DNA of 64,000 nt, taken from positions 5,436 through 69,435 of the forward strand of contig DAOSES010000005.1 in the NCBI GenBank assembly GCA_035363255.1, in the 5' to 3' direction. Below the pieces are notes generated by a model. The model was not told the origin of the DNA, made no database searches, and saw only the letters and a program-made list of their open reading frames with translations. Positions 5,159-64,000 of this stretch are shown one piece after another. The DNA is from Caldisericia bacterium. Its GTDB lineage: Bacteria; Caldisericota; Caldisericia; UBA6126. The position numbers and the translations under genes were made by a program. How positions within the stretch are numbered: position 1 is the first letter of the stretch; each line of letters opens with the position of its first letter.

Positions 5159-5166
5159 GGTGTAGC

Positions 5167-11338: not shown

Positions 11339-11459
11339 ATGAACCAAGCGATGAACCTGCTAAAAAAAGGATGGTATTTAGTTTATGATGAATAAAAAAA
11401 ATAACGACTATATTACAAAGTTTATGGATAATCGATTTTTAATGCAAAGGAGAAATATA

Positions 11460-17400: not shown

Positions 17401-20400
17401 TAATAGTCGAAATCTTGGGTCTTACTGGTATTAAAAATCCTGGAGTTGTTGGGCCTTATCGATTAGTAATTGAAACCACCTCTGAACCCACCCCGGTCGA
17501 GTCTATGGAATTTAGTCTCTTTTCATCCATCACTGCTCCTCTCGTGACTCTTTCCGTTTCTGATGCTACTCCTCCCAAACCCAAGGGCACCAGTCCTCAT
17601 GCCAAGGTTCAGGTTAAAATTGATTTCAATACTGGCCCCGCAGGCAATCTGGTAAAAGATATTGGCACTCTAAGCATTGAGTTTCCTTTTGATACTTATC
17701 TGCCACTTGCTTTTGCTCCTGGCAGCATTCGAGTCAATGGCATCACTCTCGTGGAAGCCCCTGTGGTAGATCTTGAACATCGCAAAATAACCATGAAAAC
17801 TCCTGTACATATTGCTTCCAATGCCGCAGTGGAAATTATTTTCACTGAATTGGCCGGAGTAAGAAATCCTACTCAACCTGGCAACTATACCCTCAAGGTA
17901 GCTAGCTCTTCAGAGCCCTTGTTTATTCGCTCCACTCCTTACGTGATTGAGGGGCTTTCTGCCGCAAGCGTGGAAGTTGATCCCTGTTTGTTTGATAGCG
18001 CTATGGCGAAATATCATATTAGCTTCCAAAACACACTTCCCATTCTCTCTGGTTCCACCATCATTATTGAGTTTCCCCATGGCACCAAATTGCCTTCAGT
18101 GATCCAGGGTAGTTATGTTCTGGTCAATGGAAGACCTGCCAATGTGGGCACTTTCCCTCAGGTAGCAGTCAATCTGCAAACAGTAGAAATTAAAGTACCC
18201 GAAAATATTCCTGGCTTATCCGTGATTGACATCGTCTTCCTTCCCGAAGCCCGTATCACCAATCCTCCCAGCGGAAACTATATGCTCAAGATCCGTACCA
18301 ATACTGCTGATCCTGATTTTCGCTTTATCGAATCTCAGCCTTACTATATCTGCCAGCTCATTTCGTTGGCATCAGTAGAGATTACTCCCCAAAATCCCAC
18401 CCTGGAAAAGAATTCCACTCGAGCTTTTACTGCTATTGTAAAAGACGATCAGGGCAATGAAGTCAAGTCGGGTTTACAATTCAATTGGACCTTGGAAGGC
18501 ACTGTAGGCAATATCTCGCCCAATAATGCCCGTACCGTTACCTTTACTGCCGGATCCCAAGCTGGAAAAGGCAAGCTGTCTGTTCAAGTCAGAGCTTATG
18601 GCACCCCCGATCCCGTCACAGCATCTACCGATATTACTATCGCTGCCAGTCTGGCATCCATTACCATATCTCCAAGCTCTGCTACCGTCCAAACAGGTAA
18701 AACTCAAACTTTTACCGCAACTGCAAAAGATGAATTAGGCGCAACCCTAAATATAGACGTTGATTGGACCCTCATTGGAGCATTAGGCTCCTTGAGTCCT
18801 GCCAAAGGCAAGACCACTACCTTCACTGCCAGCAGCACCGAAGGAACCGGACAAATCAAAGCTTCTGCCACTTTCGGAGGAGTTAGCAAAGAAGCTACTT
18901 CTTCTATCACTGTCAGCTCCGAAGCTGCTCCACCTCCCCCCCCTCCTCCTCCCCCACCCCCTGCTGATGTTCAACCTTTCACTGTGGTGGTAGCTCCATC
19001 CAATGTTCGCAGTAGTCAGGCAGAGATTAACTTCTCCTTTACAGTATCTGCTTTGGCAAACGTGGACAATGGACTCTTTGACATGACTATACCCGAAGCT
19101 TTCCCAGCGCCAATCCTGACCTCTTCTTCAGCAGGTTTTGTTGAAGTCAAGGGAGGAGCGGGAGTTGAATTAGCCACCCCTATTTCCATCAATCAACGAA
19201 CAATAACCATCACAGTCACCAAAATGACTCGGGGACAAATCTTTACTTTGTCGTATAGTCGCGTGACTGCTCCTGAACGTCCTGGTGAATATGTTTTTAT
19301 TTGTAATGGAAAAGCTAAAGCCGATGCAAGCATGAAAGAAGTTACCGAACAACCCAAAGTCACCGTCGTATCAGCCTCTGATGGTGCTGGTAGAGCTACC
19401 ATTCAGCCTAACGAAGCTTCAGCTGGAGCTATTGGTCAGCAGTTTGCCATTACTTTTATCGCTGATGCTATCATGGATGGAGGAGCCATTTCAGTGACTA
19501 TTCCTGATGGTTGGTCACGTCCCTCTCTTAACGCCACCTCCCCTGGATTTATAAAAATGGGTGAGATGACAGCAGAAGTTGGCTCTCTCGAAGTTTCTGG
19601 AAACGTCATCACCTTACCCATCGAAAAACTCGATATCAATCAAAAATTTACCATCCTTTATACCAATGTTGAAGTTCCCAAAAATCCCAATACCTACTCA
19701 TTCCTTGTGAAAAGTAAAGGCTTGGGTGGAACTCTCAAACCTATCGTTCTCAATCCCTCGGTCAAAGTGGACAACACCCGCATTGCAGACGGAAAAGTTG
19801 AAGTAAAGCCCAATATGACCAACACCCCCGCAGAATACTCCATCACCTTCCGTTCCTCTCTCAGTGGCTTCCTGCCCAAAGATATCGGCAAAATTACCCT
19901 GGTCTTCCCCGCCGAAACTACCTTACCCTCTTCCATTCCCTCCGATCAGGTCACAGTGAATGGAAAAGTGGTAACACAAGCCATTGAAGTCGATCCTCTT
20001 CGTAGCACTCTTAGCTTGAGCGTTCCTGAGGATTTACCCTCCAATTCGCTCATCATTGTAAAGTTTTCAGAAAAAGCAAATATCATCAATCCCAAGACTC
20101 CCAAAGAAGATTACCGCATTATGATTTCCACTACCTCAGATTCCATCCCAACAGCCAGTGCCAATTTCCGTATTGTGGTGTCTTTGTTGCGTAATGTTAA
20201 AGTTAGCGTTTCGCCCATTGTTCCTGGAGCAAGTGCTGCCTACAACATCAAGCTGATGGTGGGTGGAGCTGGAGCCTTAAACATCAATCAAGATACTATT
20301 ACTTTGGTCTTCCCCTCTGATACTGTTTTGCCGGCTACTATCGCTGCCAATAGCATCACTGTAAACGGAACACCGCTTCAAGTGCGTCCTCAGATCGATA

Positions 20401-22243: not shown

Positions 22244-25200
22244 ATGAAGTTAAAAAAATGGTTTAGTTTGTTCTTAAGCTTGGTGTTGCTCTATTCCTGG
22301 ATACCATTGGGCAGGGCAGCCATCAGCAATCTGATCAATACCCCCACTCCCAACACAGCGGGTTCGAACGCTTCTCAACGAATCCGATTCATTAATGCAG
22401 TCACGATACCCGTGGGTGGTCGCGTTGAAGTCACCTTTCCTCAACAGTTTGATCTGAGTAGTGGAGGAGACTGGATTCCAGCGGATATCGTTTTAAACTT
22501 TCAAGGAGGGCCAGCAGTTACGGTCAGTGATGTGATACGTAATGGTCAAAAAATCTCCTTTGGCATTGGTGGAGCTGCTTCAGGAGTTGGATTTCAGGAG
22601 TTCACCCTCAATGCGCTGAGGATTATTAATCCCCCTACCCCCGGAACTTACACCGTATCTCTCACCACTCTTGGCATCACTGGAACCCAACTGGAAGGTA
22701 CAGCCACCTCTGCTTCATTTGAAATTATACAGGATATGAGTGCCGCTTCGGTCACGGTGGAACCCGATATTGCAGGGGCTAATGCCAAGATGACCATCCA
22801 ATTTCGTCTTGGAACTGGAACTTCTCGTAGTCTATATACGGGAGATCGTATCCGTGTTGCTTTTGATGCCAATGTGGTGGATTTGACCAAAGTTACCACC
22901 GTCCCCGGCACCATCCAACGATCGTTCCTAAAAGTAAATCAATCAGCAGTTACTACTGACCCCACCATCACTCCTGGTGAGCCTGGGGTGAGTCGGGGTA
23001 TTGTGGAAGTGATCATTCCCCAAAATATCACCTCCAGCGCTACCCAGGGTGCTGCTGTAACGATTACTTTCGAAACAGGCGCAGGCATTCTCAATCCAAA
23101 CGATGCTCCCTGGACTCGACGAGTGGAAGTTACCACCCTGCGAAGTAATGGCATCACCATTATCGAAGGTCCTGTGGCCTCAAATTTCTATGCCATTCGC
23201 ACCACCGTTGCTGCTCCCAAGGTGTTTGTCAGACCTGAAATAGTTGGTATGAACGCTGAATATCATTTATCCATGAAGCTTGGAGCTAACAGCAGTTTAC
23301 TCAAAAACTCTGGAAGGATTGATGTAATTTTCCCAGAAGGCACGCAAATGCCAGCTTCTATCCCAGCTTCTGCCATTCGCATCAACACTGCAGTAGCAGA
23401 ACCTGCCTTTCCCTGCGATGGACCCGATTCCCCTCCTTTTGAGCCTTTGGTTTCGGGACATAAGGTCTCTTTTGTGATGCCAGTGGATGCAGTAGCAAAC
23501 AATTTTATTTGTATTGTTTTCAAGGCTTCCAGCGGAATAAAAAATCCCACAAGTCCTAGAGTATATCACCTACAGATTTCTACTTCCTCGGATCCCTCCA
23601 TAATATCTTCTCAAAGTTATTCCATTCGTCTTTCAGGAAGAGCCCAAGTTACTCCAGACCCTGCGAAATCCTCCGAAAGAGCTCAATATACTATCCAATT
23701 CCAGACTGGAGTCGATGGAGCCCTATATCCCTTTGGCACTGCTGGAACCAACAAAAATATTATGATTACATATCCTGCTGGTTTTATACTTCCTGCAGGA
23801 ATTGCAGCTGGCTTGATAACAGTCAATGGAGTTGCTACCACTGAAGCTGCAGTTATTGCAGCCCAGGTGATTACTTTTCCAGTTCCCCAGGTGATCGAAA
23901 ATAACTCCTCCGTCACCATAATCATTAAAAAAGATGCTGGAATCATCAATCGAAAGATTGCGGAGTCTCCTGAATATCATAGTCTTGTGATAGAAACTGA
24001 CAAAGAAAAAGGTCCCAACAAGATTATTTCTGACCAATTTATGTTGTATTCACCCATTACCGAAGTCTATGTGGTTCCTGGTGATCTTGGGGTTGGAGTG
24101 GTTAGTCGATATGAAGTCAGTTTTAAAATTGGTGATGTGGTAGAGGGTTTGAAACCCAATGACCGTATCAGCATTGAATTTCCCGCTGGCACTACCTTAC
24201 CCTCTTTTATCTCCACAGGAAATGTTCGACTTCAGAACGATGCAGGAGTTTCTCCTTCTTCTTTAATTATTGCTGGAAACACTATTCACTTGACTCTTCC
24301 AGCTACCTTTGTGCCTGTTCCTCCTCCTCCTGGCATCAACAATGTAAAAGTAATCTTTTTCCAAAGCTCGGGCATACGAAATCCCGAAAATCCAGGTTCT
24401 TATCGAGCCACGGTATATACTTCACGCGAAAATACTCCAGTTTTATCTGAGTTTTATACGATTGGTACTGTTTCGGGTCAAGTTCAAGTAACTGTTGACC
24501 CCAACAAAACGGGCTATTGCACTACCAGTGCTGAGGGTGCTCATTACACCGTCCAATTTACCACGGGTCAAACAGGTGGCGTTTCTTCCGGACAGCGTAT
24601 TATGCTGGTATTTTCTCCTGAATATGGTCCCATTTTTACCGTCAACCATCCCCTGAATCTTATTCCAGCAGGCACCATTCTTGTTAATGGCATACCTACC
24701 CAAATCAACACCACCATCGACAATGCTCCCACCCCTCAACATCCTCTTGGGTCCAAAATGCTCTCCATTATTTCTCCCGTCAGCATCAGTTCTCAAAGTG
24801 TAGTAAAAATTGATTTGCTTTCTTCTGCAAACATTGATAATCCTCCAGTGTCTATCACCCCCCAACCTTTCTTCTTACGTGTTTTTACAGATAGTGAACC
24901 CAGTGTTATCTCTGGATTGTACTACCTGATCTCAACCATTCGAGGCATTGGGGCTGGCTGTCACGATCCTCTCGGAGTGGAGTTGACCAATCAACTCACC
25001 CGCATGGGAACTGATATCAAGATATCTTTGCGTACAGGTATAGTAGGTGCTCTCAATTCTGGCTCAGACAGGCTCCGAGTGAAATTTCCAGCCGAAACTC
25101 ATATTCCCAGCTTTATTTCTGGCCAATACATTCGAATCAACACTGTGGACAATTTTGCAACCAGTGTAAGCGTTTTGAATCCCAGTATTTCTGACAAAAC

Positions 25201-28200
25201 CGTAGCTTTCGAAATTCCATATGGGCTTACCATCGGAAATAACGCTACCGTATTTATCTATTTCCAACAGGGTGGAGGCATTGTTAATCCTTCTGTTCCT
25301 GGAAACTATCAACTTTTTGTATCCAGCACCAAAGAACCAACAGAAGTTGCTTCTCTTCATTATACTATCGAAGGAATCAGCATTTCACGTCCTACCGTAG
25401 CTCCTCTTCCTACGCTGGCTGGAGCAGAAAAAACCCAATATACTATAAAATTCATGACTGGTGCTTATGGGAGTTTGAATATTGGTGATACCATCAATTT
25501 TGAATTTCCTGCTGGAACCGATATCGATCCAACACCTCCCAGAAATCCTCTAAATCCAAGAACAATCTCTGCACAACATGTTTTGGTCAATGGAGTTCCT
25601 TGTATTATTGCACCCACCGTCATTAGTGCCACGCAGGTGATGATATATAGTCCAGTGGTCGTGCCTTCCAATTCGCGAGTCACCATTCTTTTCACCAAAG
25701 ATGCCAAAATCAAAAACCCTATCGCTGCAGGAGATCTTTATACCCTCAGAATGTGGACTATGAGAGAAGGTAGCTCAAGCAATCCCTTAGTATCGGATGC
25801 ATATGAGATTTCTTCAGCTACTAAAATCACGAAACCCGTAGTTACGGTAAGTCCCTGCACCCCCTACAGCCCCTCTCGTTATGTGCTCGAGTTTTATACT
25901 CCCACCGCTATGACAGCCAATGTCGATGCTTTTGACATCGATTTCCCTTCCGGAACCTTTATCCCTTCCAGCATGGATGCTTCCAAAATATTGTTCAGCA
26001 CTCAAGACAATCAAAACGTATCCTGTCAAATTAATCCTGTGATAGCTGCCTATCGAATCACCCTCACCACCCCTATCAATGTCAATGCCAATAGCTACGT
26101 TAAAATCGATTTACTACGTGATGCCGGTCTGCAAAATCCAGTCGCAGGTAACTACAATTTACAAATTGCTACCGTTGGAGCTATCCCTCCCAATCAGAAT
26201 GAATCCTATGCTTATTACATCTGCCCGGATCTTGATTTTGGACGCTTGGAAATTACACCTTCCAGTATGCGTCTTCCTGTAGGCAAAACTCAAATTTTTG
26301 TAGCCAGAGCTTATGACACCCAGGGTCAACTCATGGATTATGGTGTGACTTATCGCTGGAATCTTTCCTCAAATATTGGTATGTTAGAAAACAATCATAC
26401 CCAGACCACCGAATTTTATGCTCGCAACATGGGTTCAGCCAATTTATCAATGGTAGCAGAGTATGGCAATCGATCCATCTCCACCAGTGTTAGCGTGGTA
26501 GTCACAGGGCCAATGACTCGAATTCAATTGACACCCTCGGGCATTACCACCTCCAAGGGCTTGAAAACTCGTTTTACGGTTCAGGCTTTTGATGCCAACA
26601 ACGAAGCTGCTGAAGGAGTTCTTTACCAGTGGACGGTAAGCCCAGAGCTTGGTGTGATCACACCTGTCCCTCTAAGCGACGAAGTTGAATTCCACGCAGA
26701 TACCGAAGGGCAATGCGTGATACGGGTAAGGGGAACACAGGGCGGTTTGGTCCAAGAAGCTGAAGCTCAGGTGACAATCAAAGTAGGTGTCAATAATCTA
26801 GTGATCATGCCCTCCCAGCTTGGCAGCAACCCTCAACCCGGAGAAATTCTTGGACCCTTCACAGTTGAGCTCCAAAATCCTTTGAATCAAACTATCCCTG
26901 CATTTACTGAAACTCCCATCACTCTATCCTCCACTACTCCCCATGGTAGATTCTCTCTTGATGGTATCAACTGGACAAGCTCCAATCAACTTCATACCTC
27001 CATTATGACCAACTTTGACAAGACTCAGCCCTTCTACTTGTGTGTCTTGGAAGCAGGAGATTGTACTATTGTTGCCTCTTCTGATGACTACAACTCCTTC
27101 TTGATGCCATTATCTGTTCGCGGACACAAAAAAGGGATGGTCTTTTTATCTCCTCCGCAAAACCTGCGTAGAAACGTTATATCTGAAAAAATCAGCATCC
27201 AGATCCAAGATATTCTTGGTCAACCCTATGCAGTCAATAAAGACACGATGATACAGCTTAACTCCTCTTCTCCCCAGGGTCAATTTTCCAAGACCATGGA
27301 TCCATGGATACCCCTCGAAAGATTCCTGCTTTCTCCAAGCCAGCACACCCTGGAATTGTATTATCGTGACTCTCGGGAAGGCACCCTGTCCATCACAGCA
27401 AGCAATCCAATCTTTGGCAGTGTTTCGCAGATATTCAATGTTGCTTCTCCTGGCGCTGTCAGTGCTCCAGAAGTTGTAGTCAAACCTGCTGTTTCTGGTT
27501 TATCCGCCAGCTATCAGATATCTTTCCATGTCGGTTTTGATGGTGCTCTGGAAGCTTCTCGAGACTTCATCGAAGTGGTGTTTCCAGAAGGCACTCGTCT
27601 TCCCCAAAGCATCCCAGCCTCAATGATAACCATCAATTCACAGAGTTTGATACAAACTCCAGTCATCAACACTTCTTTGCGAAGTATTCGCATGATAGTT
27701 CCCAGCTCCATATCCTCTACTGAACGGGTGGACTTGGTGATTCCTTCCATTACCAATCCTGAGCGTACTGGAAAATATACCCTAAAAGTAGCTACCAGTG
27801 TCCAAGCTACCTATTCCGATTCCCAGCCATACACCATCGATTATTCCACGATTTCTGATTTGAGCTGTGAAGCTGTGCCTTCTATTGCTGGATCGATAGC
27901 AGAACAGCGAATCAACTTCAAAACAGGATTAAAAGGAGCCTTGGAAGCGGAGCAGGACATCACACTCATCTTTGATTTTGCCTACGAACTCCCTGCGGTG
28001 ATCAGCTCTGCACATGTTCTATTTAATGGAATTCCCCTACCTTTTGACCCCAGTGTCAGTGGCAAGGCAATTGTCATTAAAGCTCCTCGATCCATATCAG
28101 CTGAAACTCTTGTCAATATTGTATTTAGCAAGGAATGCGGGATTAAAAATCCCCTCTATCCTGGCACTTACCATATCCAGGGCTTCACCTCCGCAGAACA

Positions 28201-29845
28201 GGCTATGATCAAATCTTCTCCTATTGAGATTGTGCAACACTCCTTGATCCGAGATTTGGTGATCAAACCTCAGCCTGCGATGATATCCAAGGGGGCTGAA
28301 TATACGATTACCTTCAACACAGGACCATATGGAGCGCTAACTCAACAGGATTTTATCACTTTAAGCATGCCGGATTTAATGATGCCTCTCAACCTACCTC
28401 CTTCTTCGGTAGCTATCAACAATATACGAATTCAGCAAGCTATTGCTGTCCAAAACAATACGATTCAACTCCCTGTTCCAGCTTTTATCCCTGCGAGTGA
28501 AAAAATCACCGTTGTAATTTATCGTCAAGCAGGCATCATCAATCCTGCCAAATCCGCCAATGATTATCGCATTATGGCTCATACCAGCAAAGAGCCCTAT
28601 CCAGTGTCTTCCGCCCCATTCACTATCGAGCCTCAACTTGAAATCACCCACATGATCAACCCTCCAAATCCAGATGGAGCCAACAATTGGTATATCAACG
28701 AACCTATCATTATCTTTACTTCCAATGTTCAAGCTCGTATCTATTATAGAATTGACCAGGGCGCTGAAAGAGAGTATCTTGAGCCTATTCGACTAAGCGA
28801 ACACGGTCAACATACCATCTATTATCGTGGCACCTCTCTTCTGGGTAATGAATCCGAAGTCAAGTCCTTTACTTTCCAATACGATGGCACAGCACCAATC
28901 ATCGAAACCAATATTGGAGAAGATATTTCCTATACTCGAGAACAACGCATGGCTTTTAGTATCCTTATCAAAGACATTTCTCGCGTGACCATCACCCTTA
29001 ACGACCAAGCTATTCAACTCATCAACAATAGTTATTCAACTATTCTTGACCTTAAGACAGGTGAAAACAATTTTGTGATCAGGGCTATGGATGAAGCAGG
29101 TAATGTTTCCACTCTCCATAAAAAAATCATTTTCAAGTCTCAGCCTCCCATGCTCTTGATCACCTCTCCCACTTCCTTCCAAATGATACAGGACATCTAT
29201 TTTGCCACAACCAGCGCTGGTTCAGAGCTATTTGCGAATGTACGAATCAAAGGGTCCACCGAGATAGGAGTAGAAGGTTTGGAACTCATTTCTGACACCT
29301 TCAAGGGCTTCTCATTAACTATTCCTGTGGATTCCCTGGGTAATTTTGATCGAGTCGTGGGTATTCGCAGTATGGCAGGAGACAATGTTTTAACCATCAA
29401 AGCAGTGGATAAGGTGGGAAATGAAACTCGAGTCATGATCAGCTACATTCTGCGTATTACTGTTCGTCTGCGCATTGGAGTTGAAACAGGTTATGTCAAC
29501 GGAACTCCGGTCCAATTAGGCAGTAAACCTTACCTGAAATACAACAAACATACCATGGTTCCCTTCCGTTTGATTGCTGAGTCACTTGGTGCAACGGTAG
29601 GTTGGGAGCAGGCTACGCGAAAAGTTTCTTATGATTTCCGCGGAGTTCATATTGATTTATGGATAGGAAGCAAAACTGCTGAAGTGACCGATCAAAATGG
29701 CAGAAGGAGAACAGTGACCCTCTTAGCTGAGCCTGAGTTACTTAGTGGACGTACCTGGGTACCTTTGCGTTTTGTTTCCGAAGCTCTGGGTGCTAAAGTA
29801 GATTGGGACGCTAAACTTTGGGAAGCAATCGTCTCCTATCCTTAG
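22244..29845 (+). CDS. giant secreted surface protein (2533 aa): ~12 KNP modules, 2 Big_2 domains, C-terminal cassette with 2x Cu_amine_oxidN1
   Basis: RBS GGAGG before ATG 22244. Signal peptide MKLKKWFSLFLSLVLLYSWIPLGRAA. Module ends IINPPTPGTYTV, IKNPTSPRVYHL, IRNPENPGSYRA, IVNPSVPGNYQL, IKNPLYPGTYHI and others. Big_2 pair (LEITPSSMRLPVGKTQIF..., IQLTPSGITTSKGLKTRF...). WYINEP...YDGTAPIIE. C-terminal HTMVPFRLIAESLG and TWVPLRFVSEALG repeats. Confidence 0.85.
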   Translation: MKLKKWFSLFLSLVLLYSWIPLGRAAISNLINTPTPNTAGSNASQRIRFINAVTIPVGGRVEVTFPQQFDLSSGGDWIPADIVLNFQGGPAVTVSDVIRNGQKISFGIGGAASGVGFQEFTLNALRIINPPTPGTYTVSLTTLGITGTQLEGTATSASFEIIQDMSAASVTVEPDIAGANAKMTIQFRLGTGTSRSLYTGDRIRVAFDANVVDLTKVTTVPGTIQRSFLKVNQSAVTTDPTITPGEPGVSRGIVEVIIPQNITSSATQGAAVTITFETGAGILNPNDAPWTRRVEVTTLRSNGITIIEGPVASNFYAIRTTVAAPKVFVRPEIVGMNAEYHLSMKLGANSSLLKNSGRIDVIFPEGTQMPASIPASAIRINTAVAEPAFPCDGPDSPPFEPLVSGHKVSFVMPVDAVANNFICIVFKASSGIKNPTSPRVYHLQISTSSDPSIISSQSYSIRLSGRAQVTPDPAKSSERAQYTIQFQTGVDGALYPFGTAGTNKNIMITYPAGFILPAGIAAGLITVNGVATTEAAVIAAQVITFPVPQVIENNSSVTIIIKKDAGIINRKIAESPEYHSLVIETDKEKGPNKIISDQFMLYSPITEVYVVPGDLGVGVVSRYEVSFKIGDVVEGLKPNDRISIEFPAGTTLPSFISTGNVRLQNDAGVSPSSLIIAGNTIHLTLPATFVPVPPPPGINNVKVIFFQSSGIRNPENPGSYRATVYTSRENTPVLSEFYTIGTVSGQVQVTVDPNKTGYCTTSAEGAHYTVQFTTGQTGGVSSGQRIMLVFSPEYGPIFTVNHPLNLIPAGTILVNGIPTQINTTIDNAPTPQHPLGSKMLSIISPVSISSQSVVKIDLLSSANIDNPPVSITPQPFFLRVFTDSEPSVISGLYYLISTIRGIGAGCHDPLGVELTNQLTRMGTDIKISLRTGIVGALNSGSDRLRVKFPAETHIPSFISGQYIRINTVDNFATSVSVLNPSISDKTVAFEIPYGLTIGNNATVFIYFQQGGGIVNPSVPGNYQLFVSSTKEPTEVASLHYTIEGISISRPTVAPLPTLAGAEKTQYTIKFMTGAYGSLNIGDTINFEFPAGTDIDPTPPRNPLNPRTISAQHVLVNGVPCIIAPTVISATQVMIYSPVVVPSNSRVTILFTKDAKIKNPIAAGDLYTLRMWTMREGSSSNPLVSDAYEISSATKITKPVVTVSPCTPYSPSRYVLEFYTPTAMTANVDAFDIDFPSGTFIPSSMDASKILFSTQDNQNVSCQINPVIAAYRITLTTPINVNANSYVKIDLLRDAGLQNPVAGNYNLQIATVGAIPPNQNESYAYYICPDLDFGRLEITPSSMRLPVGKTQIFVARAYDTQGQLMDYGVTYRWNLSSNIGMLENNHTQTTEFYARNMGSANLSMVAEYGNRSISTSVSVVVTGPMTRIQLTPSGITTSKGLKTRFTVQAFDANNEAAEGVLYQWTVSPELGVITPVPLSDEVEFHADTEGQCVIRVRGTQGGLVQEAEAQVTIKVGVNNLVIMPSQLGSNPQPGEILGPFTVELQNPLNQTIPAFTETPITLSSTTPHGRFSLDGINWTSSNQLHTSIMTNFDKTQPFYLCVLEAGDCTIVASSDDYNSFLMPLSVRGHKKGMVFLSPPQNLRRNVISEKISIQIQDILGQPYAVNKDTMIQLNSSSPQGQFSKTMDPWIPLERFLLSPSQHTLELYYRDSREGTLSITASNPIFGSVSQIFNVASPGAVSAPEVVVKPAVSGLSASYQISFHVGFDGALEASRDFIEVVFPEGTRLPQSIPASMITINSQSLIQTPVINTSLRSIRMIVPSSISSTERVDLVIPSITNPERTGKYTLKVATSVQATYSDSQPYTIDYSTISDLSCEAVPSIAGSIAEQRINFKTGLKGALEAEQDITLIFDFAYELPAVISSAHVLFNGIPLPFDPSVSGKAIVIKAPRSISAETLVNIVFSKECGIKNPLYPGTYHIQGFTSAEQAMIKSSPIEIVQHSLIRDLVIKPQPAMISKGAEYTITFNTGPYGALTQQDFITLSMPDLMMPLNLPPSSVAINNIRIQQAIAVQNNTIQLPVPAFIPASEKITVVIYRQAGIINPAKSANDYRIMAHTSKEPYPVSSAPFTIEPQLEITHMINPPNPDGANNWYINEPIIIFTSNVQARIYYRIDQGAEREYLEPIRLSEHGQHTIYYRGTSLLGNESEVKSFTFQYDGTAPIIETNIGEDISYTREQRMAFSILIKDISRVTITLNDQAIQLINNSYSTILDLKTGENNFVIRAMDEAGNVSTLHKKIIFKSQPPMLLITSPTSFQMIQDIYFATTSAGSELFANVRIKGSTEIGVEGLELISDTFKGFSLTIPVDSLGNFDRVVGIRSMAGDNVLTIKAVDKVGNETRVMISYILRITVRLRIGVETGYVNGTPVQLGSKPYLKYNKHTMVPFRLIAESLGATVGWEQATRKVSYDFRGVHIDLWIGSKTAEVTDQNGRRRTVTLLAEPELLSGRTWVPLRFVSEALGAKVDWDAKLWEAIVSYP

Positions 29846-57500: not shown

Positions 57501-57986
57501 CCCCGAAAAAAGAATGGAACTAGCAATGGCAACACCGTTGTAATCGTCACTGTCGCTGATATGACTTCTTCCATGGAATTTGTGGCTTTTGGCAAAACAG
57601 CCGAAAACTTGCTCCAATGCAAAGACCAGGAAACCGCAGTTTTGCTCAGTATTCGAATACGTAAAGAGGAAGATCGGGTTCGAGCCAGTTTGGCAGATAT
57701 CAAACGTATGATCACACGCGAAGAAATGATCCGCGAACAAAGTGCTCATTGGAGGCTTGAGCTCTGCCTTGATTTGGATGTTCTCAGCTCTGAGCATCTG
57801 TCGCAAATTAGACAGTGCCTCCAGAAATATGCTGGCACCAACAGCATACAACTCATGATGAAAAAGTCCCCCTGGTTGATACGAGCAGGCACCTCATTGC
57901 AAGTGGAAAAAAGTCAACAACTCCTGCTGGAGCTTGAAGCGCTGACTGGTAGCCAGCTGATCGGATGGAAACGTTGCTTAAACTGA
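54576..57986 (+). CDS. dnaE: DNA polymerase III alpha subunit
   Basis: PHP domain (HLHTHSEFSLLDG), polymerase core, OB fold. 1136 aa. Confidence 0.95.
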   Translation: MSMVHLHTHSEFSLLDGLNRIERMVCAVRDLGQHSLALTDHGVMYGVIDFYKTCLAHKIKPIIGCELYFTDKSRHQKESREDAVNYHLILLAKNYQGYQNLCKLVSLAHIEGFYYKPRLDWELLEQHHEGLVAMSACIKGHVPYLLLSDRPEEARQVAMRYQALFNDDYYLEVQNHGLPEELKVNPLLAELGKELNIPLVATQDAHYPCRSDAYAHDLLLCVQTLSDYDDPQRIRFSNDEFYIKSQAEMQELFKEYPEAVSNTELIAEKCNIEFDFDQYHLPVYQNENVKTVEERKAYLQELCYAALPKRYGSDPSSEVLERLEYELKIINDMHFVDYFLVVQDFVNEAKRRNIYVGPGRGSAAGSIVSYLLNITGIDPLQYKLYFERFLNPARISMPDIDIDFEDERRDEVIAYVREKYGAYKVAQVATFGKMEARGVIRDVARAFKYDQSWVNRLSKTIPFGRSLEEAYTLSPEFKQIIDENEDNRRLYDTARDIEGQTRNFSVHAAGVVIGDTELWNYVPLQLDKNKHLVVQYDKDTVEKMGLLKIDFLGLRNLTVIRECIQLINEQHQKVIDVEKIPLNDPEVFQLYKKAATKGVFQVESRGMRQIFKELDPSDIEDVIAVIALYRPGPMEFIKTFIRNKAHPEEIVYEHPVLEPILKNTYGICVYQEQVMSIAQVMGGFSLGEADLLRKAMGKKKKEIMEELKGDFLQRSQAQGYTPEVAKSIFEKLEFFAGYGFNRAHAAAYGLISYQTAWFKVRYPVEYMTALLNSVKDDEKKLSEYIAECYQMKIEVLPPDINQSQIHFTIENNKIRFALLAIKNAGKIALELIIENRQQQGPFRHYTDFAKRMSSGKVNKKVIESLIKAGAFDVFEADRTFLLQHIDGNCEPEVSLFGALEPSPSPLEKKPVKIDYHQHMHYEKEALGFYFSMHPFAPYLETYPDFACPPIEELQEEIPEQEILVEVFGLIESIRQPRKKNGTSNGNTVVIVTVADMTSSMEFVAFGKTAENLLQCKDQETAVLLSIRIRKEEDRVRASLADIKRMITREEMIREQSAHWRLELCLDLDVLSSEHLSQIRQCLQKYAGTNSIQLMMKKSPWLIRAGTSLQVEKSQQLLLELEALTGSQLIGWKRCLN

Positions 57987-59761
57987 TTCGTTCGGTCCGT
58001 TTCCAGGTAGTCATGTTTACCAGTTTGCTGGTTATTTTGGGCAATGGTTTTCTGGCAGTCTTTATTGTTCGACAATACACTGAAAGTCTGGTCAGAGAAA
58101 AATACGAAAAGCTTGGTCAACATGCCAGATACCTGGCTCAGGTTTATCTCATCATCGACAACAATACCCAAAACAATGCCCGTACTCAGTTCAATGCCCA
58201 AAATCCTGGTCCTGATTTTCGTAGCTACGAAGACATCTATGCCCAACAGCGCCGAGAATGGCTTGAAAGCCCCTTAAAAGACCATACTGGTGGCTTGATG
58301 GAATACTCCGAAGAATTGGGTGCAGGCTTTTACTTCAGCGATCTTAAGCGAATTATGGCTTTTCAAGTCGATCCTCGTTTTATTGAGTATGATCGTCTGG
58401 TATATGCGGTGCCTGTCGAGCCTGAAGGGTCCTTTGTTTGGGTGGAAGAGTCCTATCACAACATCAATATTCAATTTAAAGCCCTCAATCAGAGAGCTTT
58501 CCAAATCACTTTTCTTATCATCCTTATCACTTTGTTTCTTGCTGGCCTATTCACCTGGTCCTTTTCAGTGCGAATGAAAAAAATTCTCACTACGCTTTCA
58601 CTGCTACAAAAAGATTTGCATGCTCCAGTCCCCTTTCTGAGCGGAGAATTCGGGCATATCTCAGAAGGGATCCGCTCCCTTGCCGAAGCTTTGATACGCA
58701 CACGATCTCGTTCCGAGCTCATTTTACGTAGCGCAAAAACGGGTATGATTGCCTTTGATCTTGATTTAAACATCGTGATGATCAATGAAGCCGCAGAGCA
58801 GTACCTGGAATGTAATGGAAACACTCTCGGCAATCTTGAAGTGCTCGATCGTCTTGGGCATCTGATAAGCACCACCATACAACAAGCCTTTGAAAGTGGA
58901 AATACCTATTCCTTCGATGGTATGCGCAAGGTAGTCGAATCCAAAGAAAAATATTTCAATATGACCATTATCCCCAACCAGGGAGATTCTGATGTAAAAA
59001 TGGTACTGGTTACCCTTGAAGATGTGAGTGAAAATGTCAAACTCATCAAAGAAGCTGAGAAAAACGAATCTCTTAAAATGCTTGGACTTTTTACCACCGG
59101 AGTTGCTCATGAAATCCGCAATCCACTTACCTCTATTAAGGGTTTTATCCAACTTTTAAACAAAAAAATGCAGGATCAAACTGATAATGCACGTTTGCTT
59201 CATTTGGTACTCCGAGAAATAGAACGTCTCGAAAACCTGATCAAAGACCTTATCACCTATGCCAGGCCCTCCAAGCCAAACTTTGAGTGGGTTCCGGCTG
59301 GCCCTTTGCTTGATACTATCGTGCAAGTTCTTGCTCCTCGCATCAGTCAGAAAAAAGCTGAAGTTTTACAGCTCGAACTGGACGAGTTGGAGCTTTTTAT
59401 CGATCGCCGGCAAATGTATCAGGTTTTCTTCAATCTCATACTCAATGCTATTCAAGCTGTTCCCTCCGAGAATGGGATCATCAAACTCCGAGCTGAAAAA
59501 CAGGAGCATTATGTCGATTTGATCGTGGAAGATAACGGTCGAGGTATAGAGAAAAGTGATTTTGGTAAAATCTTTACCCCCTTTTACACCACCAAAGATA
59601 AGGGTACAGGACTTGGTTTGGCTATCTCAAGGCGCATGATAGACGACCATGAAGGTAAGATTCTTTTTGATAGTATAGCAGGTGAGGGAACCATTTTCCG
59701 TGTTCGTTTATTCAAATATCGAATACGCAAATCAAACGATTTACAAGCACTTTCTGCCTGA
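57965..59761 (+). CDS. two-component sensor histidine kinase (2 TM, PAS, HisKA, HATPase_c)
   Basis: TM helices near aa 10-35 and 190-210. H-box GVAHEIRNPLTSIKGF. N/G boxes (LILNAIQAV, DNGRGI, GTGLGLAIS). 22-nt overlap with dnaE. Confidence 0.85.
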   Translation: METLLKLIRSVRFQVVMFTSLLVILGNGFLAVFIVRQYTESLVREKYEKLGQHARYLAQVYLIIDNNTQNNARTQFNAQNPGPDFRSYEDIYAQQRREWLESPLKDHTGGLMEYSEELGAGFYFSDLKRIMAFQVDPRFIEYDRLVYAVPVEPEGSFVWVEESYHNINIQFKALNQRAFQITFLIILITLFLAGLFTWSFSVRMKKILTTLSLLQKDLHAPVPFLSGEFGHISEGIRSLAEALIRTRSRSELILRSAKTGMIAFDLDLNIVMINEAAEQYLECNGNTLGNLEVLDRLGHLISTTIQQAFESGNTYSFDGMRKVVESKEKYFNMTIIPNQGDSDVKMVLVTLEDVSENVKLIKEAEKNESLKMLGLFTTGVAHEIRNPLTSIKGFIQLLNKKMQDQTDNARLLHLVLREIERLENLIKDLITYARPSKPNFEWVPAGPLLDTIVQVLAPRISQKKAEVLQLELDELELFIDRRQMYQVFFNLILNAIQAVPSENGIIKLRAEKQEHYVDLIVEDNGRGIEKSDFGKIFTPFYTTKDKGTGLGLAISRRMIDDHEGKILFDSIAGEGTIFRVRLFKYRIRKSNDLQALSA

Positions 59762-59779
59762 TTTAGTTATAATAGTAGC

Positions 59780-61087
59780 ATGGCAAAATATACGATATTA
59801 GTTGCAGACGATGAAGAAGGTGTGAGAGAGCTATTCAAAGAGATAGCTCTCGAAGAAGGTTTTAGGGTGTTGCTTGCCAAAGATGGCATTGAAGCAGTTC
59901 AAAAAGCAAGATCCGAAATCCCCGATGTTATTATTCTCGATATACGCATGCCCGATATGGATGGTATGGAAGCTTTTCGACGCATCAAAGAAAGTTTGAT
60001 GAATGTTCCCGTGATTTTTATTACTGCCTTCGGAACCTCCGACTTAGCGATAGAAGCAATGAAAAATGGGGCCTACAACTATCTCACCAAACCTTTTGAC
60101 ATCGATGAAATACGCATCGTCATTCGCAGGGCAATCCAACTCCGTCAACTCACCAACGAAGTCGCGGTGCTCCGTTCTGGTGGAAGCAATATCACTGCCG
60201 ACCAGGATGAGCTTCATGGTCATTCCCCCGTAATGCAAGAAATCTACAAGTCGATCGGACGCATTGCCGACAACGATGCAGCTGTTTTGCTGATTGGCGA
60301 AAATGGCACTGGCAAAGAGCTTATTGCCCGTAAAATTCACGAAAATTCCAATCGAAAGCTTTTGCCATTCGTCCTGATCAATTGTTGTCAGGAGCCTGCC
60401 ATTCTTGCCAACGAGCTCAAACTTATTCCGAGTTCTGAGTGTTCCGTTTTTTTTAGAAACATCGAAAAACTCCCCTCTTCCTCCCAACACTTGCTCATGG
60501 AAATTCTAAACCAAAAACCCAAATGGCGTATTATGTCGTCCAGTACTACCGATTTATCCCAAGAAGCTTCCTCTTCTCTATTTCGTGAAGACTTGTATTA
60601 TCTCATCAAGGTGGTACCCATCCAAATCTCGCCTCTGCGAGACCATATCGAAGATCTGGAAGACCTTGCTCTCTACTTTATGAAACGCTTCTGTATCCGT
60701 TACGGAAAAATTATCAACGGTTTTACTGCCGAAGCCCTCAAAGTCCTTCAAGGGCATCACTGGCCCGGAAATATGGATGAACTGGAAAATGCCGTAGCCC
60801 ATGCAGTTATAGTAGCAACTGGCACTCTGATTACAGCAGATGATTTGCCTGTTTCTCTTCGCGAAACACGCCATCCTACCATCAGTTCTCAAAAAAAACT
60901 ATTGCATGGTTTAAGTCTTCACGCCGCAGTAAAACAATTTGAAAAACAACTTATCCTTGACGCCCTCCAACAAGCTGGCGGTAGCAAGACCAAATCCGCT
61001 GAATTATTGGGCATTTCAAGGCGATCCCTCTTCAACAAAATGAAAGAATTTCAACTGCTCAAAGAAAACGAAACTGAACCAAATTGA
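59780..61087 (+). CDS. NtrC-family response regulator with degenerate sigma-54 activator domain (REC + AAA+ lacking GAFTGA/Walker B, + Fis-type HTH)
   Basis: REC domain (LVADDEEGVRE...DIRMPDMDG) and Walker A GENGTGKE. The segment where ESELFGHEKGAFTGA...LFLDEIGE would sit is shortened to ...LKLIPSSECSVFFRNIEKLP. C-terminal HTH KSAELLGISRRSLFNKMKE. Confidence 0.8.
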   Translation: MAKYTILVADDEEGVRELFKEIALEEGFRVLLAKDGIEAVQKARSEIPDVIILDIRMPDMDGMEAFRRIKESLMNVPVIFITAFGTSDLAIEAMKNGAYNYLTKPFDIDEIRIVIRRAIQLRQLTNEVAVLRSGGSNITADQDELHGHSPVMQEIYKSIGRIADNDAAVLLIGENGTGKELIARKIHENSNRKLLPFVLINCCQEPAILANELKLIPSSECSVFFRNIEKLPSSSQHLLMEILNQKPKWRIMSSSTTDLSQEASSSLFREDLYYLIKVVPIQISPLRDHIEDLEDLALYFMKRFCIRYGKIINGFTAEALKVLQGHHWPGNMDELENAVAHAVIVATGTLITADDLPVSLRETRHPTISSQKKLLHGLSLHAAVKQFEKQLILDALQQAGGSKTKSAELLGISRRSLFNKMKEFQLLKENETEPN

Positions 61088-61245
61088 GCTAAAACTCTAT
61101 TTTTTTTATAAAAAAATTAAGAAAAAGCTTGTTTTTTCTTGATTTTTTTGTAAACATTGCTTAAATTGAGGATAAATGAATGAATTGTATTGTTTTAACC
61201 TCGCAAGAAGCAAGCGATGCTTTAAATTAAAAGGGGGAAAAAGAA

Positions 61246-64000
61246 TGAATAATCGTAGATGGAGATTTTTAAGCATCTTCATAACTACCGCTTTAATGTT
61301 TAGCTCTTTAGCTGGCATCAACCTTCACACTGCCCGTGCAGATGTTCAAAACACCCAGGTTACACCCTATCCCAGAGAAGCCGGCAAAAATGCTTCTTAT
61401 CGTGTTGGCACCAACATCAATGCCGCATTAAACGCCGGCACTGATTCCATTTCAGTCATCTTCCCAAAAGAAAATCGTATCGAATCCATGATCTCAAGTG
61501 CCAACATTTCCGTCAATCCCAAGCGATTGAACCGAGCTGACTTCGAACTTGACTATACCCGTGGCACCATCAACCTCCTCGCCCCCCTCCAAAAGGGCGA
61601 TCGGGTGACTGCCAGCTATCGCTACGATCCGGGTGTAGCCTATACCGGGCTTCCCCGCAGTGTCAAATTTTACGATCACACTTTCGCACCCGGAGATATT
61701 CGTCGTGGAAACGGTGTTTTAGACCCAGGCGAATGGATCTACGAAGATCGCACCAACAACAACAAACTCGCCGTGGGCGACCGACGCCTTTGCGTGGTTG
61801 TAGCTCCTGGTAATGTTTACCGAGCTGGTTCACTGGTTCAAATCGGTGATGCCGATCTCGTAGCTGCCGGTGGAAACGAGCTTGGTCCTCTTACCAACTA
61901 TCCTGTCTCCAACTTGAAATTTGTCGATGTGGACGACAATGGTATCTACTCCGAAAACGACTGGCTTATCGACGATCGCGACAACAACGACCTTCTCAGC
62001 GCTGGCGACCGAGTCATCACCGGCTACCTCTGGTATGTTGCCGGTATGGTTGTCAATCAAACCGACCTCGACCGTTTCAATCCCACCAACCTTGCCGCCC
62101 AGATTGGAGCTAGCTTCGCTCCCTTGGCTGGCACTCTCCGTCACGCCGAAAATGTCAACAAAAACAACCAATACGACGATGGCGAATATATCTACAACGA
62201 TGCTGATGCCAACAATCGCGTCAGTGCTGGCGATACCCGTTTTACCTGGGTGTATTCCAACACCGTGGTATATCCCAGACTCAGCATTGTACTCGCCGCC
62301 GACAAAGATGTAGGCACCACCCTCGTTGCTTTCATCAACAATGCCCCCACCCGCCAAGAAACCACCTACAACCCCGGTATCTTCCCTCTCAACTACTTCA
62401 AAACCATCTACTCCCATGTTGGCGCCGCCGCTGCTCTTGTTGAGCCCGGCAATCTCCGCCTTTCTCCTGCCCAACGAGCTGTATTCAATCCTTTGGTAGG
62501 CAATGTTGCTGCCAACGACCCGGATGCAGGTCAAACCCTTTTCCAGTTCAACACCAACGAAAAATACGCTGGCTTCAATCCTTTAGCCTATTCCCAAGAC
62601 GATCCCATCTACCGCGATTTAGACAATACCGCAACCGTCACGGAAGGCGACCTTCGCCTCACCGATTTCAGCGTTTGGGTGGATAGCACCCGTATCCTCT
62701 ATACCGCTGGATCCACTGTTCGCAAAGGCGAATACGATCTTGGTCTCGTTCTCAGCGATCTGGATGTTTTACCCATAAAACACACCGAAATTGGTGTTCC
62801 CAACGCTCAGTTCGATCCAGGAGAACTTATTTATGATGATGTCGATGCCAACAATCGCGTTAGCGCAGGCGATGTTCGATACGATTTTAATGGTATCCAA
62901 TCCGCCAATATCACTGTCCCTGCGGCTTATCCCGATGCTGGTCTTACCCTAACCCGAGGATGGACCGATATCACCAACGAAGTCCTCATTTCCTATGCCA
63001 ACGGTGGCGAACGTCAGCTCCAACTTAACAACAAACCCGTGGTACGCCCCGTAGTCCCTATCTCCAACGACGTCAACCATCGTCTCACTCCTCTCACCAT
63101 TCCTGGCGGAGATATGCGTGGCAAAGGCAAATTCTATTATGTTATTACTGCCGTCAGCGATATCGTTGGCGAATCCGATACCTGGGAAGAACGCATGGTG
63201 GATTTCATTTCCGGTTCTACCACCAATGCTGTCAAAATTGAATGGTCTCCTGTTCCCAATGCCAGCAAATACCGCATATATCGAACTCCCAACCAAGGCA
63301 CCTACGAAGAAACCTCCCTGATAGCCCAGGTTATGGCTCCCATCACCCACTACATCGACCTCGGTGGCGAAGCCCTCAATGGCATGCCTCCTTCCATCTA
63401 CTCCTCTTCCTTCACCGTCCTCACCCTCAATCGTACCGATCCCGTCACCGGCACCAGCTCCGATCGTCGTCTGGTGGAGTTTGATCTCTCCGACTACAAA
63501 CTCGATCTCGCTTCCGGTAACATCACCTTCCGCCGTCCTCTCAAATCTCTCGATACCATCGTTGCAGACTACGATCGAGGCATCAAAGTCACCAACGAAA
63601 GCGTCATGTTCCAAGCCATCCAAGGTCGCGGAAAGCTCCGTCATGGCGAAGTTCTCGACCCCAATATCTATGGCGAAGAACTCTATCCTGTCAAGCTTCA
63701 TCGTATCTCTGCCGCCAATCCAAACGATCCTACCCTTCTGGTGCGCGGAGTTGACTACGAATTCGAAGATGAAAACCGCAACAAAATCGAAGGACTCAAA
63801 AAAGGTGAAATCACCTTCTTCATCCAACTCCTTCAAACCGATATTGTACGAGCCGAATACACCCATCGCCGTCAGGTTCGTGGCGATATGATCAAAGTTG
63901 CCACCGGCAACGAGACCACCGTCCGTACCTCCGAAGGCAACATCATCGCTCATACTGACATTATTATGAAGGGTCGCACCCTTTCCTCTGCTCCTGTCAT
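61246..64000 (+). CDS. partial (3'-truncated by window end) secreted repeat protein with four EF-hand/dockerin-like 12-residue Ca-binding loops
   Basis: Not in the ORF track because no stop falls in the window. RBS AAGGGGG precedes ATG 61246. Signal peptide MNNRRWRFLSIFITTALMFSSLAGINLHTARA. The open frame runs 918+ codons to nt 64000. Repeats GEWIYEDRTNNNKLAVGDRRL, NDWLIDDRDNNDLLSAGDRVI, GEYIYNDADANNRVSAGDTRF, GELIYDDVDANNRVSAGDVRY. Confidence 0.8.

Follow-up and report, generated by a model that had tools for sequence, protein, structure and literature searches.

A large secreted-type protein of a Caldisericia bacterium with six tandem repeat units bearing putative calcium-binding, EF-hand-type loops between predicted beta strands

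At the end of a 64,000-nucleotide stretch of DNA from a Caldisericia bacterium (contig DAOSES010000005.1; this whole stretch is called the window below), a large open frame on the + strand runs off the sequence. We found that the encoded protein, of which the window holds the first 918 amino acids (aa), contains an array of six tandem repeat units (aa 139-576) whose loops have the ligand layout of EF-hand loops. The reading that we favour, and consider rather likely, is that this is a secreted surface protein, held at the cell wall, with a calcium-binding and calcium-stiffened six-unit array, and, with less confidence, that it serves as a core component of the envelope or of adhesion.

An initial annotation of the window had described four evenly spaced loops of the EF-hand or dockerin type, about 60-230 aa apart. 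The array instead consists of six tandem units with a period of ~72-76 aa; two degenerate units had been overlooked, and the four motifs seen earlier are four of the B loops defined below. The literal motif given for them, GE[WY]IY.D.D.NN.[VL]SAGD.R, held at aa 313 only; a relaxed form matched at aa 162, 313 and 526, and the fourth site, at aa 238 (NDWLIDDRDNNDLLSAGDRV), is more diverged. The proposed placing of D or N at loop positions 1, 3 and 5 and of D at position 12 was borne out for four loops (DRTNNNKLAVGD, DRDNNDLLSAGD, DADANNRVSAGD and DVDANNRVSAGD). Altogether, the window protein contains seven EF-hand-like 12-mers (at aa 168, 228, 244, 303, 319, 458 and 532), whereas 2000 shuffles gave an expectation of 0.4 and a maximum of 3. 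The 12-mer at aa 532, DVDANNRVSAGDV, is the only full match to PROSITE PS00018 in the window protein.

To avoid circularity, we scored the units with a profile from which the window family had been excluded (483 units from 90 distant proteins). This leave-family-out profile recognised all six units, at 27.6-70.6 bits (Table 1). Five B loops (those of all units but unit 4) and two A loops (units 2 and 3) were intact or nearly so. At the corresponding position of unit 1 the homologues carry DRDNDGRITVGD, and the loop orthologous to that of unit 5 (DMDSNGSVSEGDI and similar) fits PS00018 in full in 8 of the 12 more distant homologues. Unit 4 has lost both loops in this species (IYSHVGAAAALVEPGNLRL) and retained its second half (NDPDAGQTLFQFNTNEKY); some homologues retain a canonical loop B in this unit, for example IYLDSDSDGTVSAGDARL in P0003. 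The unit is absent from all other reading frames of the window, those of the remaining large surface proteins included.

The anatomy of the unit became clearer when its occurrence elsewhere was taken into account. When the first 918 aa of seven family members were used in an exhaustive profile search, 659 protein clusters were matched (E ≤ 1e-3), on three separate regions: the N-terminal domain, the repeats and an FN3-like domain. Iteration of a unit profile on the best 150 of these 659 clusters together with the family (165 proteins) gave 589 units in 109 proteins, with 1-12 units per protein, at least two in all but one of them, and a median period of 72 aa. The consensus of the unit begins with (F/Y)-x-D-x-[DN]-x-[NDS]-G-x-[YFW]-[DSTN]-x-G-[ED]-P-I-Y-x, followed by D-x-D-x-[SDN]-[GN]-x-[VI]-[ST]-x-G-D-x-R-L … Y-x-x-G-[ST]-x-V-x-x-G-D-x-D-x-G-x-x-L-x-x-F. 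The window units agree with the family consensus f.D.d.nG.Yd.GE.iY.D.D.sG.Vs.GD.RL...Y..GS.V..GD.D.G..L..F (~72 aa). Each unit is built from a strand, the 12-residue loop A, a strand, the 12-residue loop B and a strand, and then the Y..GS.V..GD.D.G..L..F half with its GDxDxG motif.

Both of the adjacent loops have oxygen-bearing residues at positions 1, 3, 5, 9 and 12, Gly at position 6 and a hydrophobic residue at position 8. Over the 589 units, loop A has D at position 1 (93%), D/N at 3 (60%), N/D/S at 5 (81%), G at 6 (51%), an aromatic residue at 8 (85%) and E/D at 12 (94%). The corresponding values for loop B are D at 1 (76%), D at 3 (64%), S/D/N at 5 (72%), G/N at 6 (58%), V/I at 8 (88%) and D at 12 (96%). 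The PROSITE EF-hand core (positions 1-12) was matched by 229 of the B loops and 112 of the A loops. We also looked for co-variation between the integrity of the A and B loops and the GDxDxG motif, with a view to assigning ligands to sites, and saw no clear signal in this set.

We obtained a structural model of units 2-3 (aa 221-375) by AlphaFold, using an alignment of 64 diverse two-unit segments. The mean predicted local distance difference test score (pLDDT) of this pair model was 84.5, with values of 93-98 across unit 3. In unit 2, the model has a strand at aa 224-227, loop A at 228-239, a strand at 240-243, loop B at 244-255 and a strand at 256-259. Helices were predicted only in a low-confidence insert of unit 2, and the model otherwise consists of short strands. 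Searched with Foldseek, the pair model had no neighbour in either structure library: the best E was 3.2 in the PDB (probability ≤ 0.04) and 0.84 in BFVD. Either the predicted fold is unrepresented there or it is too small and loop-rich for Foldseek.

Sequence libraries were equally silent. Nothing rose above threshold in Pfam or NCBIfam for the 918 aa, and neither library contained the repeat when the query, ten distant members, 58 distant members and 42 isolated units were scanned; in distant members, sub-threshold matches to Pfam EF-hand models (EF-hand_1/6/7) lay exactly at the loops. A search of PDB sequences with the pair profile gave a best E of 0.025 for 3njg (an SO1698-type self-cleaving peptidase), a local resemblance over 38 residues that is not significant. 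The repeat-pair profile, when used in a word-indexed protein search, yielded only four proteins with no useful names, and the cluster names of ten distant members were 'hypothetical' or 'S8 peptidase' only. The earlier wording 'EF-hand or dockerin' was therefore apt for the ligand pattern, EF-hand or Dx[DN]xDG, which is clearer over the 589 units, but not for the domain, since no Pfam model matched at threshold, comparison with dockerins failed (see below) and the loops are flanked by strands. The loops share the ligand spacing, Gly 6 and hydrophobic residue 8 of an EF-hand loop but lack its helix-loop-helix flanks, and in the model beta strands (RL.. / WLID) follow each loop, where a dockerin has a helix. 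We conclude that the repeat is neither an EF-hand domain nor a dockerin.

The full-length architecture can be read from homologues. A protein search returned P0001, which is 1600 aa long and 92% identical over 100% of the query, and twelve further homologues with 49-55% identity, 11 of which are 1503-1595 aa long; P0010, encoded on a 3-kb contig, has 976 aa. Conservation spans the whole 918 aa in the family alignment, and the source records name the homologues 'hypothetical protein' only. A near-identical contig, L004, covers the window protein from aa 366 onwards and prolongs the frame by ~545 codons, through a Big_2 region up to the start of the Cu_amine_oxidN1 part. The near-identical contig and the 1600-aa orthologue thus show a real gene of ~1600 codons, the first 57% of which lie in the window. 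L004 (CAZJAK010000138.1, 3.3 kb) is filed in a metagenome-assembled genome (MAG) labelled 'uncultured Spirochaetaceae bacterium'. This label is probably due to mis-binning: the nearest named relatives of the threonyl-tRNA synthetase (ThrRS) of the window are Caldisericia MAGs (~60% identity), and a further orthologous locus (L005) is from a Caldisericota MAG.

According to precomputed Pfam assignments, the C-terminal parts of the full-length homologues contain Big_1, Glucodextran_B and Cu_amine_oxidN1 domains, and most also contain Big_2. The C-terminal PF09136 + PF07833 module is present in all full-length homologues; it lies beyond the part of the protein in the window, and its onset is visible in L004. 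PF07833 (Cu_amine_oxidN1) has been described as a wall-associated or predicted wall-binding module (PMC4137172; bioRxiv 10.64898/2026.09.23.753664). Four other proteins of the window, encoded at 3521-5158, 5155-8643, 11385-22190 and 22244-29845 (545, 1162, 3601 and 2533 aa, respectively), also end in Glucodextran_B + Cu_amine_oxidN1, which by its recurrence looks like the common surface-attachment module of this organism.

From these domains, the Big-type Ig-like domains, Glucodextran_B and the tandem Cu_amine_oxidN1 domains would fasten the protein to the cell wall by its C-terminus, from which its N-terminal half, with the N-terminal domain and the array, would project outward. Each intact loop would bind one Ca2+, giving ~7 sites in the window protein (in five B and two A loops). 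With calcium bound, the loop-rich units would be locked into a rigid array, and folding or stiffness of the exposed part would then depend on external calcium. The array is most likely a calcium-stiffened extracellular module, and we infer calcium binding by the loops from their ligand pattern. Such a role of calcium is known from other extracellular repeat proteins. The motif Dx[DN]xDG binds calcium in a near-identical manner in at least 16 unrelated structural contexts, always with an extra acidic ligand later in the sequence (PMC3123361). In the Sdr B repeats, which have EF-hand loops, calcium gives a compact, stable conformation (PMC3775735), and in the extender repeats of RTX adhesins Ca2+ stiffens the surface protein and projects it away from the cell (PMC7493085). 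With less confidence, we suggest that the protein is a core envelope or adhesion component under kinase-regulator control rather than a variable accessory adhesin, because its conservation equals that of DnaE and the same kinase-regulator pair always precedes it (see below).

Several observations weigh against this interpretation. Loop position 6 is Asn or Asp, not Gly, in this species; position 3 of unit 1 loop B is Thr, and position 1 of unit 3 loop A is Asn. Unit 4 is without loops and three A loops are degenerate, so that fewer than seven sites may be occupied. The GD.RL conserved behind loop B may be no more than a structural beta-turn signature, and wall binding by Cu_amine_oxidN1 is taken over from annotation. 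An AlphaFold model of the whole 918 aa, built on the 14-sequence family alignment, was poor (pLDDT 51), with 75-92 in units 3, 5 and 6, and a Foldseek search with it gave generic Ig-like noise only. The predicted template modelling score (pTM) of the pair model was only 0.58, so that the array could be a rod or form a closed assembly. Finally, the conserved gene order may reflect general synteny and not regulation.

The most serious alternative is that the acidic loops are conserved Asx-type turns of a beta-rich scaffold and not metal sites, the repeat being a calcium-independent spacer or a ligand-binding (e.g. glycan-binding) module. The replacement of Gly 6 by Asn or Asp in this species would fit such turns. 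Several loops have decayed while the unit was kept, so that the fold evidently tolerates loop loss; the intactness of loop A and loop B varies independently among units; and the most invariant residues (D33, R35, V52 and D58) include positions that are not ligands. A generic turn, however, does not explain a full EF-hand loop signature in two loops per unit over 589 units of very distant proteins, including the many B and A loops that pass the PROSITE core. Moreover, Dx[DN]xDG loops bind metal in all 16 contexts surveyed (PMC3123361), and all carriers of the unit are of extracellular type, where calcium is available. We therefore regard loops devoid of metal as unlikely.

An integrin-type beta-propeller, in which the units would be calcium blades (FG-GAP/VCBS) of a six-blade ring, appears very unlikely. 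It would account for six units of similar size, a number that the family keeps exactly, and calcium blades likewise have Dx[DN]xDG between strands (PMC3123361). On the other hand, neither FG-GAP, VCBS nor any other propeller family appeared in the Pfam scans, and no propeller was among the Foldseek results for the confident two-unit model against the PDB. In calcium blades the extra ligand lies 2 residues after the motif (PMC3123361), whereas here it is at loop position 12, with two loops per unit. A closed ring would also not accommodate the unit numbers of other carriers (2, 4, 9 or up to 12).

The initial annotation had linked the loops to a dockerin gene at the other end of the window, as a sign of calcium-dependent assembly of the cell-surface proteins. 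That gene is real: a 166-aa open reading frame (ORF) at 72-572 encodes a BACON/Ig-like domain and, behind it, a genuine Dockerin_1 domain (E 2.3e-8). The sole basis for the tie is that both genes lie in the same 64-kb window, where Pfam scans of 16 other proteins revealed no cohesin. If the loops were dockerin-type modules, they would dock in a calcium-dependent manner on cohesin scaffolds, together with the 72-572 protein. The D1, D/N3, D/N5, D12 pattern is indeed common to both, and some repeat proteins elsewhere end in dockerins (Dockerin_1 in 4 of 58). In those proteins, however, the dockerin is a separate C-terminal domain besides the repeats, which argues for two different modules. When we compared the unit profile by hhalign with a dockerin profile made from the window's own dockerin and nine dockerins from the C-termini of distant repeat proteins, the probability was 2.5% and 15 loop columns were aligned. 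Dockerin_1 did not match the window protein at E ≤ 1, and a single match at E 0.84 was found in the 42 isolated units. The predicted flanks of the loops are strands and not helices, and the unit of ~72 aa has a conserved second half that dockerins lack. The dockerin explanation is thus close to refuted at the domain level, and we give it hardly any weight. What the window surface proteins and the present family have in common is the C-terminal Glucodextran_B + Cu_amine_oxidN1 module and not the repeat. Calcium-dependent assembly of surface proteins, as such, would be a reasonable idea.

The open frame represents a genuine gene, large and of secreted type, that continues beyond the window. It begins at an ATG at 61245 (upstream context AAAGGGGGAAAAAGA, then ATG AAT AAT CGT) and, as first described, stays open to the end of the window, with 918 stop-free codons up to base 64000. 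The start had been placed one base too far downstream, at 61246, from where translation meets 25 stops. The remaining five frames contain 12-72 stops over the gene and the + frame none. With a codon log-likelihood model trained on seven housekeeping genes of the window, the + frame scored 0.361 per codon, similar to the housekeeping genes themselves (0.26-0.39, n=7). The proposed comparison of codon usage between the strands thus came out in favour of the + frame, with lower scores for the two antisense ORFs that are, as had been stated, the only ones on the ORF list here (61830-62534 and 62949-63953, both on the - strand; Table 1). These are shadow ORFs, not genes, and the + ORF is absent because the list leaves out ORFs that run off the window. 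That the + frame is no gene and one of the antisense ORFs the coding sequence, as the list taken by itself would suggest, is already refuted by the codon scores, the stop-free codons, the 13 homologues with conserved architecture and the synteny, and its probability is negligible. The same open frame is present in three independent assemblies, so a stop or frameshift in the gene is unlikely. The gene is uncalled, as had been said, only inside the window; JGI and NCBI records list its orthologues as hypothetical proteins.

The expression and export signals claimed earlier could be found again. A G-rich, Shine-Dalgarno-like run lies 5 nucleotides (nt) ahead of the ATG. By inspection, the N-terminus has an MNNRRWR n-region, a hydrophobic core and an ARA-D end and looks like a Sec signal peptide; the A-D pair is kept in 13 homologues, and the A32-D33 junction is invariant in the family alignment.

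The base composition of the gene (61245-63998) sets it apart from the other 30 genes of the window: its GC content is 0.509 (vs 0.39-0.48), and C occupies the third codon position at 0.469 (vs 0.15-0.32), G at 0.068. Neither the nearby ribosomal protein genes nor the L005 and L006 orthologues share the third-position-C bias, so we did not take it as a sign of high expression.

Outside the array, the N-terminal domain (aa 33-138) is the best-conserved part of the family, with a mean identity of 65% to the 12 distant members. It recurs 8-13 times in other giant proteins (profile positions ~27-134) and has a sub-threshold match to the phage distal tail protein family DUF2460 (E 1.5e-4, 21.7 bits; cut-off 30.4). 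A motif D(F/Y)xLDxxxGxIxFxxPLxxxDxIxAxY occurs three times in the protein, at aa 98-127, ~748-776 and ~836-873 (D(F/Y)xLDxxxGxIxF copies at nt 61536-61625, 63486-63572 and 63750-63863), and the first copy gives the DUF2460 match. The segment at aa ~601-715 is a probable FN3 domain by its sequence motif: many distant proteins match profile positions ~600-710, often in multiple copies, and Pfam gave no match there on the window protein itself. The last part (aa 716-918) has a mean identity of 52% to the distant family members and low AlphaFold confidence.

The proteins that share the unit are diverse. Pfam content was compiled for 58 distant carriers, and among the 25 most frequent of the 34 families matched were S8 subtilases (12 carriers), GEVED (6), Dockerin_1 (4) and TSP_3 (3). 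In the subtilase carriers, pairs of units are inserted in the protease. Most distant carriers have signal peptides; at the C-terminus some end in dockerins, others in PGF-CTERM-like or PEF-CTERM-like anchors or in a duplicated helical motif. Anchors of the PGF-CTERM/PEF-CTERM type are typical of archaea. We infer that the unit is a mobile extracellular module, present in bacteria to judge from named records and in archaea to judge from the anchor types. The number of units per protein favours 2, 4, 6 and 9 (21, 19, 23 and 17 proteins) over odd numbers such as 3, 5 and 7 (7, 6 and 5 proteins), and subtilases carry the units in pairs. Two units together may make up the structural module.

Two peculiarities of the carriers deserve mention. 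In distant carriers such as P0134, P0073, P0077, P0104 and P0161, canonical units alternate with a cysteine-bearing form (GFVDSDCSGxWTCPDKLYLQQ…VTIGDLRLYIPP…CGTKVEQCDKDAVYAL) in which loop B is replaced and four Cys are gained, as if disulfides stood in for one calcium site. The duplicated helical motif (~ELMxAIxDWKxGxLSMxDLMxxIxxWKxGSY) is found at the C-termini of P0036, P0046, P0106, P0111, P0117, P0152, P0161 and others. These proteins look archaeal, the motif has no Pfam family among the 25 most frequent of the 34 matched, and it may be an undescribed docking or anchoring module.

Directly upstream of the gene lie a histidine kinase gene and an NtrC-type response regulator gene. The order GlmM, DnaE, histidine kinase, NtrC-type response regulator and target gene was found at six of six loci (the window, L001 and L005-L008), and the downstream gene differed at all five readable loci (MoxR ATPase, AI-2E transporter, oligopeptidase F, AbiEii and GcpE). 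Such conserved order suggests that the adjacent kinase-regulator pair controls the target gene. The 918-aa part is about as conserved as GlmM, DnaE, the kinase and the regulator: its identity is 92% in L001 (82-92% for the four neighbours), 51% in L005 (47-56%) and 50% in L006 (41-58%). Surface proteins that are exposed do not usually keep pace with their housekeeping neighbours in this way, which points to a core structural role of the protein.

The response regulator (59780-61087) has receiver, AAA+ and Fis-type helix-turn-helix domains. By eye, it is without a GAFTGA loop, and the acidic pair of Walker B is replaced (…SVFFRNIEKL…); it is probably sigma-54-independent and perhaps inactive as an ATPase. 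A -24/-12 element (GG-N10-GC) was not seen by eye upstream of the gene. We dropped a sigma-54 promoter model on account of these features of the regulator and the missing GG-N10-GC. Four aligned orthologous intergenic regions contain an invariant TTTCTTG ... TTG-TTAAATT-AG, at loci whose proteins are only ~50% identical. In the window, the conserved block (TTTCTTGATTTTTTTGTAAACATTGCTTAAATTGAGG, 61133-61175) holds a promoter-like element and, from its conservation, could be a promoter or the binding site of the regulator. A strict sigma-70 scan made no call upstream of the gene, the element having 8 of 12 positions at a threshold of 9.

At the opposite end of the window, the surface-protein gene block (640-29845) encodes, besides the four proteins with the C-terminal module, an extracytoplasmic function (ECF) sigma factor (640-1206) and a GT2 glycosyltransferase (8627-10027). 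A 773-aa protein without a Pfam match (1203-3524) is possibly the anti-sigma partner of the ECF sigma factor.

Table 1. Positions in the window of the gene, its protein regions and the neighbouring elements
Feature	Position	Strand	Basis and remarks
Histidine kinase (57965-59761) and NtrC-type response regulator (59780-61087)	57965..61087	+	Pfam; directly upstream
Promoter-like element: TTGATT (61139-61144), ~16-17 nt spacer, TTAAAT/TAAATT (61161-61167)	61139..61167	+	
Ribosome-binding site AAAGGGGGAA	61230..61239	+	Read from sequence; equivalent position kept in L001 and L006
Coding sequence	61245..64000	+	Codons 1-918 of ~1600; exits window end
Signal peptide, aa 1-32, MNNRRWRFLSIFITTALMFSSLAGINLHTARA then DVQ	61245..61340	+	Basic n-region, hydrophobic core, A-x-A; by inspection
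N-terminal beta domain, aa 33-138, ending in motif DFELDYTRGTINLLAPLQKGDRVTASYRY	61341..61658	+	Family alignment, profile search
Repeat unit 1, aa 139-222	61659..61910	+	Profile match aa 153-207, 46.6 bits; loop B DRTNNNKLAVGD, aa 168-179, nt 61746-61781; loop A degenerate
Repeat unit 2, aa 223-298	61911..62138	+	Profile match aa 223-278, 35.4 bits; loop A DVDDNGIYSEND, aa 228-239, nt 61926-61961; loop B DRDNNDLLSAGD, aa 244-255, nt 61974-62009
Repeat unit 3, aa 299-383	62139..62393	+	Profile match aa 304-372, 70.6 bits, best unit; loop A NVNKNNQYDDGE, aa 303-314, nt 62151-62186; loop B DADANNRVSAGD, aa 319-330, nt 62199-62234
Repeat unit 4, aa 384-447	62394..62585	+	Profile match aa 387-444, 27.6 bits
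Repeat unit 5, aa 448-511	62586..62777	+	Profile match aa 448-506, 47.9 bits; loop B DLDNTATVTEGD, aa 458-469, nt 62616-62651; loop A degenerate
Repeat unit 6, aa 512-576	62778..62972	+	Profile match aa 520-571, 34.2 bits; loop B DVDANNRVSAGD, aa 532-543, nt 62838-62873; loop A degenerate
Probable FN3-type beta domain, aa ~601-715, AVKIEWSPVPNASKYRIYRT	63045..63389	+	Sequence motif
Region with two further DY-x-LD-x-x-G-x-I-x-F ... Y motifs, aa 716-918	63390..64000	+	Read from translation
Antisense ORF, 234 aa	61830..62534	-	Codon score 0.148 vs 0.362 for the + frame over the same bases
Antisense ORF, 334 aa	62949..63953	-	Codon score 0.094

The repeat appears to be an undescribed domain family and possibly provides a new structural context for a known calcium motif. 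It adds a bounded domain to the catalogue of extracellular calcium modules, one that occurs in at least 109 protein clusters and in none of the family and structure libraries searched. As AlphaFold models it confidently and neither the PDB nor BFVD contains a neighbour, it is well suited to curation as a family and to crystallography. For the Caldisericota, a strongly conserved large surface protein and a shared C-terminal module are leads to how the envelope is constructed. No new biological principle is involved, as calcium-stiffened surface repeats are already well known. A bolder proposal, which we put forward as a doubtful one, is that the fold is new to solved structures and constitutes a seventeenth, strand-flanked and doubled context of Dx[DN]xDG, that the unit is a mobile extracellular calcium module of bacteria and archaea, placed within subtilases and joined to dockerins and archaeosortase-type anchors, and that the protein is the main calcium-dependent envelope or S-layer-type building block of Caldisericia-like bacteria. 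If true, the last point would explain the DnaE-like conservation and the dedicated kinase-regulator pair.

Among known systems, the loops come closest to the EF-hand loop (PS00018), with which they share the 12-residue ligand layout and the acidic ligand 5 residues after the DxDxDG core (Rigden et al. 2011, PMC3123361). They differ in that they join beta strands with no helix-loop-helix, that the two loops are only four residues apart, that position 12 of loop B is Asp and not Glu, and that the Pfam EF-hand models are not reached. Dockerins of type I (PF00404) resemble the repeat in being extracellular and in having duplicated calcium loops with the same ligand pattern. In a dockerin, each calcium loop is followed by an alpha helix, and these helices form the cohesin-binding face. 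The repeat differs in unit length, in its second half and in the strands after the loops, and the likeness of the profiles is confined to the loop.

The staphylococcal Sdr B repeats (CnaB-type) are likewise tandem, beta-rich repeats with EF-hand-type loops, placed between a head and a wall anchor. They are ~110 aa long and belong to Pfam SdrD_B/CnaB, however, whereas the 42 isolated units gave one non-significant SdrD_B match (E 0.044) and the pair model no CnaB match by Foldseek. The extenders of RTX adhesins are long tandem arrays of small beta domains stiffened by Ca2+ (PMC7493085), which is the mechanism proposed here. In RTX extenders, which consist of many near-identical copies of an Ig-like sandwich, calcium lies in the linkers; the present array has six diverged units, each with sites for two EF-type loops inside the unit, and no match to an Ig-like fold, and orthologous units share ~37-56% identity. 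Finally, the integrin-type calcium blade is also an extracellular repeat with a Dx[DN]xDG loop between beta strands (PMC3123361), but its extra ligand follows the motif by 2 residues and not by 5 as here, and a blade has one loop where the unit described here has two.

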